From Octopus vulgaris (Eukaryota): 64,000 nucleotides of DNA. The notes below the pieces were generated by a model that saw only the letters and a program-made list of their open reading frames with translations, was not told the DNA's origin and did no database searches. This document shows positions 2,258 to 41,064 of the stretch, piece after piece (position 1 is the stretch's first letter; each line of letters begins with the position of its first letter). Location: NCBI GenBank assembly GCA_951406725.2, contig OX597834.1:34410001-34474000 (forward strand), in the 5' to 3' direction. The position numbers and the translations under genes are program-made.

Positions 2258-2263
2258 CATGCA
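2258..2263 (-). promoter_or_regulatory. Rbfox-type element TGCATG at +12..+17 downstream of the microexon donor
   Basis: gtaagatatcaTGCATG on the minus strand; a downstream UGCAUG is the established Rbfox inclusion enhancer. Confidence 0.5.
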
Positions 2264-2274
2264 TGATATCTTAC

Positions 2275-2289
2275 CTGGCGGCGTGACGT
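2275..2289 (-). CDS. SCAI: Candidate 15-nt alternative microexon of SCAI (adds RHAAR after KEDR)
   Basis: Minus strand: long U-rich tract ...ccttgctattgctgctttggtatcaacag|ACGTCACGCCGCCAG|gtaagatatcatgcatg. Length is a multiple of 3 and it is open in phase 2, like the upstream SCAI exon. It lies in a CpG-containing island between (TA)n tracts. Assignment to SCAI is inference. Confidence 0.6.
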
Positions 2290-2303
2290 CTGTTGATACC
2301 AAA

Positions 2304-2315
2304 GCAGCAATAGCA
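2304..2315 (-). promoter_or_regulatory. UGC motifs at about -15 to -26 of the microexon 3' splice site (SRRM3/4 eMIC-type enhancer)
   Basis: cctTGCtatTGCTGCttt lies between the polypyrimidine tract and the AG. Confidence 0.45.
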
Positions 2316-2391
2316 AGGTTTAAAAAAATAATAGAAATAAAGAAAAAAAAATAGTGACAACGAATGCTTACTTGAAAAAAAATAATGGTAG

Positions 2392-20431: not shown

Positions 20432-20467
20432 CGGTTTTGTGCACACAGGTTTTCTTTCCATTTTATT
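20432..20467 (-). CDS. SCAI: Candidate 36-nt alternative cassette exon of SCAI (adds IKWKENLCAQNR)
   Basis: Minus strand: ccaattctctctactaacag|AATAAAATGG...ACAAAACCG|gtaagt. The donor is a perfect consensus, and the exon is symmetric and stop-free in phase 2. Assignment to SCAI is inference. Confidence 0.5.
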
Positions 20468-30400: not shown

Positions 30401-32592
30401 CTTGAGTACCTGTCTCACTTTCCAGTTGATTGCTAGCATATTTTATCATTTTATCTAAAAACAAATGTCCAAGATATTACAAATGTCATAAAGGCAGTTC
30501 AGAAGTTGAGGGTTCACTTCTGCTCTCTTCAAATTCAAATATTATTCTTTAATTATTGTTCATTATTAATTCATGTATAAATATTAAATAAATCCATAAC
30601 GAATGTCTGTATTATTCTTAGAACAGTTGTTGTTTAAAAGCAGACCAGACAGGATTTAGAAAACCAATGTCAAAAGTATTGTCTAGTCCGTCTTCTAAGA
30701 GTTGTTTAGGATTACATCAACCAATGTGTCCTCTACTGATTTAAGACAGTATAGTGTGATAAGCAGAGATTTAGCTGCTATATCTAGCATGCTTACATGA
30801 TCGCATAGAAGCTCCCTGATGTTTAGGTGATTACATATTATTTTCTTCATCTTCAAAGTTCAACTTTGTAGATGCTGATGCATTGTTCAGTTGGTATTCT
30901 TGTTATTCATCAAGGAACTTTTATTTAACAACTACATCTGTTATTCTAACCAGCATCCCAAGAAACAAAAGCACTGTCATTTTAAGGTACTTTGACACTA
31001 AACTTCAGCAAGAAAGAGACTTCTATGCTACCTGGAGGTGGAGATGGATAATCAAAGAAACAAATATCAGAATAAACAATTCAACTAAGGAAAAATACAG
31101 CCAATTGATAATGATTATAATTCTTGTATAATTCTATTCACATTTTGGATGTATTATAGGAATGCAAATCAACTTTAATTTACCAACCCTAGATGGAAGG
31201 ATGAAAGACAAAGTTGACCTCAGCAAAAATACCAAAACTAAATACTGCAAGGCATTTTGTCCAATATTCTAATGATTCTACCAATCCACTACCTATAAAT
31301 GGAGACAAATGCTTTAGTCTAATATTCAAGTATATTGAAATGACAACACTTTTGTTTCATAGCACAACAGGCAAGTGGTTAAATCAGTAGACTAGTAGTT
31401 AGTAGCATCAAGTTTAAACCCTGGCATAGCTCGAGAATAATCCCCTGAAGACAACTGGTGATAATACTAATCAAAACATTGCTACCATATATGATAAACG
31501 TCTATATTTACAAATTTAAATACCAAAGACAATGGAAATAGGGATATAGTTTAATATATTGACATAATCCTGAGAAGTAGTGACTCAGGAAGGCAGACTC
31601 AGCAACGAATAAATAACATTATTTAAACAATCCTCAAAAAATGTTCAATAAAATTGGAGAAATTTATTAATACTTTTCCAAAGAATTCTCAGAAACATAT
31701 TTTTTCATTACTAAGTAAAATTGTTCTATAAGCAGACTTCTGATAACAACCAGAACATAGGTGTTGTCACTACAAAGTTGTTGACAGCAAGAGTTCCATA
31801 AAATGTCAGAGATTACTTTCGATACATGTCAGTAAAAATAAGATTCAGTAGATGAAGATTTAGGTATGAAACTCAATCTCTATGTCTGTCTACTGCACCT
31901 TGTCTTAATCTGCCATTCTGGCTTTCTTGGATTTTTAGCATTGAAATTGCTTTGTGGAAATCTTATTGTTATAATTATAGGATTTCATTTCTAGAGACTC
32001 TATAGAACAGTTCTCTTAAATAAACAGACAATCATTAGAACAACATCCAAATGACAGATCAACGTCCATAAAAGTGATTCATTATTCAAACATTATACAA
32101 ATGGACTTCAATGGTGACAAATCTTTCACACAGCCAAAGAAATGATGCAGAGAATTCGCTTGGAATCAATAACATTAGCAAGCAGACAGCACTAGCTAGA
32201 ATTCCAGCAGGCAAGAGTTCTAAAAGGGAAAAGTTCTTCTCAGGAATTTTACTCACTCTCATGCTTCAGGCTTTTATCATAATTTGATCATCTCATGGTT
32301 TTGTCATTTATCCACATATTCTAAATCAATCACAGTTAAGTTATTGGCAATAGAAAAAGAAAAAAAAAATCTAATACACTATTTAGCAGAACATCTCCCC
32401 TTGTTTGGAGCTGGAAATAATAACTTAATGAAAGATTCAGATTTCAGTGGAATATTTCTCATCTTGTATGTAATTACCATTGTGTGTATGTGTACGTATT
32501 TTTTATAGAGCAAATTAATTTTAGGGTTCTCTTGATTAAGGTTTCTATTTGAAGTAAATAATTTAAATAAACGTTGGATAATGAACACATAC

Positions 32593-40965: not shown

Positions 40966-41064
40966 CTGTCCTCTTTGTTTGCCTTTGAGTAATATGCTCG
41001 CATACGGATTGCTGAGTAGAACGAAAATGATTCATTTAGGTAGTTTGTTTCACTAGTTCGTAAA
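40966..41064 (-). CDS. SCAI: Internal coding exon of SCAI (suppressor of cancer cell invasion) ortholog, 99 nt, phase 2-2
   Basis: Minus strand reads ttttttgttctttttcag|TTTACGAACT...GAGGACAG|gtaagt. It translates to (Y)LRTSETNYLNESFSFYSAIRMRAYYSKANKED(R), closely matching vertebrate SCAI as recalled (YLRTSETSYLNEAFSFYSAIRQRSYYSQVNKEDR). Both splice sites are canonical and strong. Confidence 0.92.

Follow-up and report, generated by a model that had tools for sequence, protein, structure and literature searches.

The window, by which we mean the whole stretch of 64,000 nucleotides of Octopus vulgaris contig OX597834.1 that was analyzed, contains part of the SCAI gene. A search with the PF12070 profile returned ten exon matches, all on one strand of this contig (G000:C21) and extending across about 152 kb. 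Our interest is in a single 46-kb intron of this gene. Its upstream exon lies in the window and its downstream exon, which reads R-P-D-L-M-V, begins about 5.4 kb to the left of the window (G000:C21:34404581). Two cassette exons split the intron into segments of 20,498, 18,142 and 7,693 nt, and the last two of these are the introns that flank the smaller cassette, an exon of 15 nt. The features are listed here in the order of transcription.

Positions 40966 to 41064, minus strand: upstream SCAI exon, 99 nt, ending ...YSKANKED-R; it supplies the phase-2 donor for the 46-kb intron in which both cassettes lie.
Positions 20432 to 20467, minus strand: second SCAI cassette, 36 nt, phase 2-2, adding 12 residues (IKWKENLCAQNR); its peptide is present in P0122, which is RefSeq X1, and in four Logan proteins.
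Positions 2290 to 2366, minus strand: putative 3' splice-site region of the 15-nt exon, with a CAG acceptor, UGC motifs, a U-rich tract and an AG exclusion zone.
Positions 2275 to 2289, minus strand: 15-nt cassette microexon of SCAI, phase 2-2, adding 5 residues, identified from the sequence together with database peptides.
Positions 2258 to 2274, minus strand: 5' splice site GTAAGA followed by a putative Rbfox-type TGCATG, read from the sequence.

When the 15-nt exon is skipped the SCAI product reads KEDR-PDL, and when it is included the product reads KEDR-RHAAR-PDL. The initial annotation of this DNA had proposed a junction between KEDR and PEL, and this must be corrected: the downstream exon here reads PDL, and PEL at this position is the vertebrate form. 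The SCAI exons of this genome carry octopus residues at those diagnostic sites that could be read. A search of PDB sequences with the upstream exon gave no matches.

The 15-nt exon is read on the minus strand from 2289 to 2275, with a CAG acceptor before it and a strong donor, GTAAGA, after it. UGC motifs are located at −17, −20 and −26 relative to the acceptor (positions 2306, 2309 and 2315), and the AG exclusion zone upstream of the exon is 75 nt long. The U-rich tract extends from approximately 2317 to 2349, and U makes up 70%, and pyrimidines together 82%, of the interval from −60 to −28. On the other side of the exon, TGCATG begins at +12 (positions 2263 to 2258). Reading the minus strand thus verifies the arrangement described in the initial annotation, namely cag, 15 nt and gtaaga, with three UGCs upstream and TGCATG at +12. 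The island between (TA)n tracts that the same source put at about 185 bp measures 187 bp (2205 to 2391). Within 150 nt upstream of the exon no YTRAY branch point was found, and a degenerate one may be present. A 24-nt core around the exon is single copy in the genome.

How often might such an arrangement arise by chance? Among 168 candidates of the form AG-(3-30 nt)-GTRAG, the 15-nt exon ranked first by an ad hoc score. When the minus strand was subjected to 100 local dinucleotide shuffles and these were evaluated by criteria chosen after the site was known, the basic frame-preserving layout appeared 1.43 times per strand and the layout with at least two UGCs 0.09 times per strand, and the combination of layout, UGCs and TGCATG did not appear in any of the 100. 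Taken alone, TGCATG is frequent in the window, with 42 copies on the plus strand and 39 on the minus strand. A stricter scan, again of the minus strand, left three frame-preserving candidates, the 15-nt exon, the 36-nt exon and a third at 30454 that contains two in-frame stops and was discarded. The latter is a 36-nt segment (30419-30454, minus strand) of the form AG...GTGAG, preceded by a pyrimidine-rich AG-free zone; it is probably a product of chance and possibly a poison exon.

Database proteins provide information about the use of the 15-nt exon. Of the 12 members of the closest protein cluster, nine span the SCAI junction; in these cephalopod proteins both exons are present in five, the 15-nt exon alone in three and neither in one. 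The RHAAR peptide occurs in P0121, P0122, P0125 and five Logan proteins, and P0123 skips it. In both O. bimaculoides and O. sinensis, RefSeq isoform X1 contains both exons, X2 the 15-nt exon only and X3 neither (in O. bimaculoides these isoforms are XP_014777914.1, XP_014777988.1 and XP_014778064.1, with counterparts in O. sinensis). The O. vulgaris protein CAI9738508.1 includes the 15-nt exon as a 5-residue insert. The 15-nt element is therefore a real optional exon of octopus SCAI. It is a microexon by the usual definition, being within 3-27 nt, in frame and bounded by canonical AG and GT ends, with both the included and the skipped product represented, as judged from database proteins of the two octopus species with RefSeq isoforms. 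The predicted phase 2-2, frame-preserving insert of five residues is borne out by the exon phases and by these isoforms, and the proposed search of mollusc SCAI isoforms recovered the RHAAR insert in both octopus and cuttlefish-type proteins. The expectation that gene predictors would probably miss the exon was mistaken: X1, X2 and CAI9738508.1 already include it. We have therefore dropped the description of it as unannotated, since database models of octopus species carry it. Its existence is not new, and isoforms X1 to X3 are known from automatic annotation only.

The 36-nt cassette, which is absent from the initial annotation, occupies the same intron. Its donor is GTAAGT. Upstream of it AG is absent for 48 nt, a zone in which motifs resembling branch points occur at −40, −33 and −7, and no UGC is found within 60 nt. 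Among the nine cephalopod proteins the 36-nt exon never occurs without the 15-nt exon (0/9), and all five of its carriers contain both. The result is a series of isoforms with 0, 5 or 17 additional residues. In this small sample (n=9) the pattern suggests an ordered inclusion.

The Logan proteins extend these observations beyond the octopods. Octopus SCAI differs from the cuttlefish protein P0124 at five residues, and at all of these the Logan proteins are of the cuttlefish type; because they share every diagnostic residue with P0124, we classify these five sequences as decapodiform-type. RHAAR is unchanged in all five Logan proteins, each of which spans the junction, and the 12-residue insert is unchanged in four of the five. 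The skipped form is not found among these five. Since cuttlefish-type proteins carry an identical RHAAR peptide, the 15-nt exon is, on protein-level evidence, conserved across coleoids, and the conservation check suggested by the initial annotation for related cephalopods thus has a positive answer at the level of protein. The octopod and decapodiform lineages diverged about 270-300 million years ago. SCAI as a whole is about 99% identical between octopus and cuttlefish-type sequences, and identity of short inserts would therefore be expected under similar constraint. Identical short inserts still argue against noise.

We now turn to the regulation of the 15-nt exon. Four features are described for exons that depend on the eMIC domain: a long AG exclusion zone, UGC close to the acceptor, an extended pyrimidine tract and a strong branch point; in flies such exons combine the strong branch point with short introns (PMC8797185). 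The octopus exon resembles the eMIC microexons of flies and mammals in being a short in-frame cassette with an AG zone, UGCs at the acceptor and a pyrimidine tract, and the eMIC-type upstream signals noticed in the initial annotation do fit this pattern. Its strong donor is like those of mammalian eMIC targets and unlike those of fly targets (PMC8797185). The resemblance is incomplete. The octopus tract is U-rich, whereas the tracts of eMIC targets are UCUC-rich, the strong CUAAY-type branch point is not seen in the octopus sequence (no YTRAY), and the flanking introns, of 18 and 7.7 kb, contrast with the short introns of the fly targets (PMC8797185). The exon also resembles the RBFOX-enhanced micro-exons of human and mouse, with TGCATG just downstream, long introns and an insert in a flexible region (PMC4317164). 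From its sequence, then, the 15-nt exon would work like an eMIC/Rbfox microexon and may be considered a candidate member of this class with one motif missing.

The regulators themselves may be sought in the genome. A match to PF15230 lies above the cut-off (32.6 bits) at G000:C25:37317492-37317626, and about 24 kb downstream of it, at about 37341780 on the same contig, an exon reads ARKRPVPY, which we take to be the eMIC domain motif. Because the profile match is followed by this later exon, the genome appears to encode an Srrm234 eMIC domain, in two exons about 24 kb apart. In non-vertebrates, 3'-end processing of the eMIC exons has been reported to act as a neural switch (PMC8797185), and by analogy the octopus Srrm234 eMIC exons could be controlled in this way. 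A profile search of the same genome (G000) for the Fox-1_C family (PF12414) gave no match; an RBFOX-like BLAST match has been reported in an O. vulgaris transcriptome (PMC5736919). Judged from the motifs at the exon, neural specificity is fairly probable.

In humans, TGCATG is enriched downstream of microexons, and RBFOX promotes their inclusion in brain as well as in muscle and heart (PMC4317164). This counts against an exclusively neural role and raises the alternative that the exon, real as it is, is driven mainly by Rbfox, with inclusion in muscle or heart no lower than in neurons. The putative Rbfox-type motif is a short distance downstream of the donor, and its location at +12 is an enhancing position (PMC4317164), although the window contains many copies of it. 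The failure to find YTRAY, the canonical branch point of the eMIC model, weakens the eMIC interpretation and to that extent favors the alternative. The intron lengths (18.1 and 7.7 kb, unlike fly targets), the Fox-1_C search that matched nothing and the lack of UGC at the 36-nt exon also weigh against a neural interpretation based on eMIC with help from Rbfox. However, the 75-nt AG-free zone and the presence of three UGCs no more than 26 nt from the acceptor are of the eMIC type, and two or more UGCs were rarely reproduced by the shuffled strands (0.09 per strand). We therefore regard a mainly Rbfox-driven exon as unlikely.

A further alternative is that the 15-nt exon is nearly constitutive in coleoids, that skipping is minor and that the regulated exon is the 36-nt cassette. 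Eight of the nine junction-spanning cephalopod proteins include the 15-nt exon, among them all five of the cuttlefish-type Logan proteins; skipping is represented by a single distinct sequence, and the donor is strong. The single O. vulgaris model and the uniform inclusion in the cuttlefish-type proteins (5/5) are likewise compatible with broad, high inclusion, and this weighs against the neural eMIC interpretation. On the other hand, two octopus species have an annotated isoform, X3, that skips the exon, and the combination of weak-acceptor and enhancer features suggests regulation. A nearly constitutive exon thus also seems improbable, at roughly the level of the Rbfox-driven one.

With moderate confidence we favor the interpretation that the 15-nt exon is a real, coleoid-conserved SCAI cassette that is likely to be neuronal through the action of the Srrm234 eMIC domain, possibly helped by Rbfox, and that would alter partner binding by lengthening a predicted loop of the TPR-like domain of SCAI. 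According to this model the long U-rich, AG-free tract with its UGCs would make the acceptor weak by default, and the eMIC domain would recruit U2AF/SF1 and so define the exon. Rbfox bound at +12 would reinforce inclusion. The 36-nt exon would be included mainly alongside the 15-nt exon, yielding the series of 0, +5 and +17 residues. In the simplest mechanism, a flexible loop of a peptide-binding scaffold would gain a basic patch upon inclusion while the fold stayed undisturbed, and the basic insert would tune an interaction of SCAI, a nuclear scaffold.

Structure prediction is consistent with the last part of this model. The inclusion isoform, folded with an alignment of 141 diverse sequences, gave a pLDDT of 91.5 and a pTM of 0.92, with a fall to 73 in the block of residues 121-130. 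An earlier fold, based on a shallow alignment of 51 sequences, had a pLDDT of 56.4, and helix positions alone were taken from it. The insert, at about residues 127-131, is predicted to lie in a loop (117-132) between helices 100-116 and 133-152, and it is predicted to leave the SCAI fold intact. The flanking helices are strongly conserved (0.98 at R116 and 0.99 at R141) and the loop is not. In 65 of 103 matched eukaryote representatives the loop segment has 13 residues, within a range of 10-44. The literature consulted for SCAI named nothing that binds this loop. In vertebrates a REV3 peptide is bound directly by SCAI, which functions in DNA crosslink repair with REV1-Pol zeta (PMC8982572).

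The same model permits comparison of SCAI with other folds. For residues 1-199 the resemblance is to TPR-like helical repeats (LGN; Z 12.7, rmsd 5.8, 155 aligned), and its score is middling for helical folds. Residues 229-561 (P0121, model m8c1032f056da) resemble the caspase-like N-terminal domain of Raptor (Z 20.7, rmsd 3.4, 262 aligned), and their matches to true caspases, with Z up to 12.7, are well below this value. By eye, the SCAI strands that correspond to those bearing the catalytic His and Cys in caspases read ISADG and CDSDN, which suggests that the C-terminal two-thirds of SCAI is a pseudo-caspase. No report of this resemblance to Raptor was evident in our literature search.

The junction that holds the octopus cassettes also carries inserts in other lineages. 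In a set of 266 invertebrate proteins, 192 span the junction and 50 have an insert there, representing 19 distinct sequences. All but two of these sequences (17/19) are non-cephalopod and they come from bivalves, gastropods, a nemertean, insects and a tick. All of the inserts begin with R or S because the phase-2 junction requires it. Vertebrates are different: 202 proteins were examined and an insert was found in one of the 190 that bear the junction, so that the notion of a bilaterian-wide hotspot was abandoned. The first 118 vertebrate proteins had been ordered by their similarity to a query lacking an insert, and this disfavors inserts; in the 84 unranked cluster members the proportion was 1/73.

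To place the junction among other positions in SCAI, indel events were counted in 365 near-identical pairs drawn from 190 proteins. There were 16 events at the cephalopod-exon junction, nine near residue 284 and at most four in any other bin. Subtraction of three cephalopod events and of one unexplained single-residue event from the 16 leaves 12, and two of these came from clusters picked for known inserts (4/10 picks), which leaves ten. The junction is thus one of two SCAI insert hotspots. It cannot be called a unique hotspot, since the position near residue 284 is almost as rich. The latter junction (QPF/ENG; G000:C21, about 34391054-34394400) belongs to a linker modeled with low confidence; near residue 284 octopus showed no insert, and a scan of the available introns gave no convincing candidate.

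These inserts do not have a single origin. Codon logic, on the assumption of GT donors, demands a true cassette for Patella and Tubulanus only, and a shifted donor or acceptor may account for the inserts of other lineages. In metagenome contigs several animal-like loci have this intron as well, and further inserts of five or six residues occur. The insert of L013 ends like an acceptor, that of L015 starts like a donor, and in L064 and L076 it is the upstream exon that is longer. These four look like products of other splicing routes, and the view that all inserts are microexons was accordingly dropped. The 501-nt orthologous intron of L056 contains no convincing microexon. Because the inserts differ in kind (cassettes, acceptor-like, donor-like and lengthened exon), the loop appears from the sequences to be a hotspot of length variation reached by several splicing routes, to which the cephalopod solution is two cassettes. 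It might be argued that the 15-nt exon is itself functionless splicing noise tolerated in a loop that spans 10-44 residues and that has acquired unrelated inserts in many lineages, several of them resembling shifted splice sites, but this is very improbable, given that both peptides are identical in octopod and cuttlefish-type proteins, that the surrounding intron of 20-46 kb is repeat-rich and that inclusion predominates in the cephalopod records.

The recurrence resembles type I convergence, in which exons arise repeatedly at one intron position. Tissue-specific examples include spg/DOCK3-4 and syd/SPAG9, in a study that covers O. bimaculoides (bioRxiv 10.64898/2026.09.05.749416). In SCAI, too, unrelated short inserts appear to occupy the same intron position in different lineages. 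This recurrence differs from type I convergence in being mostly protostome, with cassettes shown for the two cephalopod exons only. SCAI is not named in the main text of that study, and its supplements may tabulate the event. Nor does SCAI appear in the main text of PMC4317164, and neither SCAI nor a fly gene name used for it was matched in the text and one supplement of PMC8797185. A literature search in which subscription journals were thinly covered returned no paper on a microexon or splicing of SCAI and none on cephalopod neural microexons as such; no paper was found on the regulation, conservation or function of octopus isoforms X1 to X3. A bolder proposal, which we consider doubtful, is that the SCAI loop is a protostome-wide hotspot for length switching by splicing, in which coleoids have fixed two invariant, hierarchical neural exons (0/+5/+17) that rewire a DNA-repair and chromatin scaffold specifically in neurons.

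In vertebrates SCAI is known for its role in crosslink repair (PMC8982572) and not for neuronal isoforms. If the 15-nt exon proves to be neural and eMIC-dependent, it would offer a clean test case for a cephalopod microexon program. The two invariant cassettes, together with unrelated inserts elsewhere, mark the SCAI loop as one whose length evolution keeps altering and as a place to seek a regulated interaction, and the series of inserts is a natural set in which to ask whether convergent exons have a function in common.

Several observations on individual clusters may be added. P0082 and L013 share an insert that ends in VPCR, which may be conserved in another lineage; the L013 copy reads like an upstream-shifted acceptor. 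In the P0102 cluster, which includes Ornithodoros turicata, a 6-residue insert is present in all eight junction-spanning members and the skipped form in none. The P0501 cluster has 15 listed members, of which ten are without the SCAI junction, are about 305 residues long and are mostly named as PP6 phosphatase; these PP6-named members are a clustering artifact.
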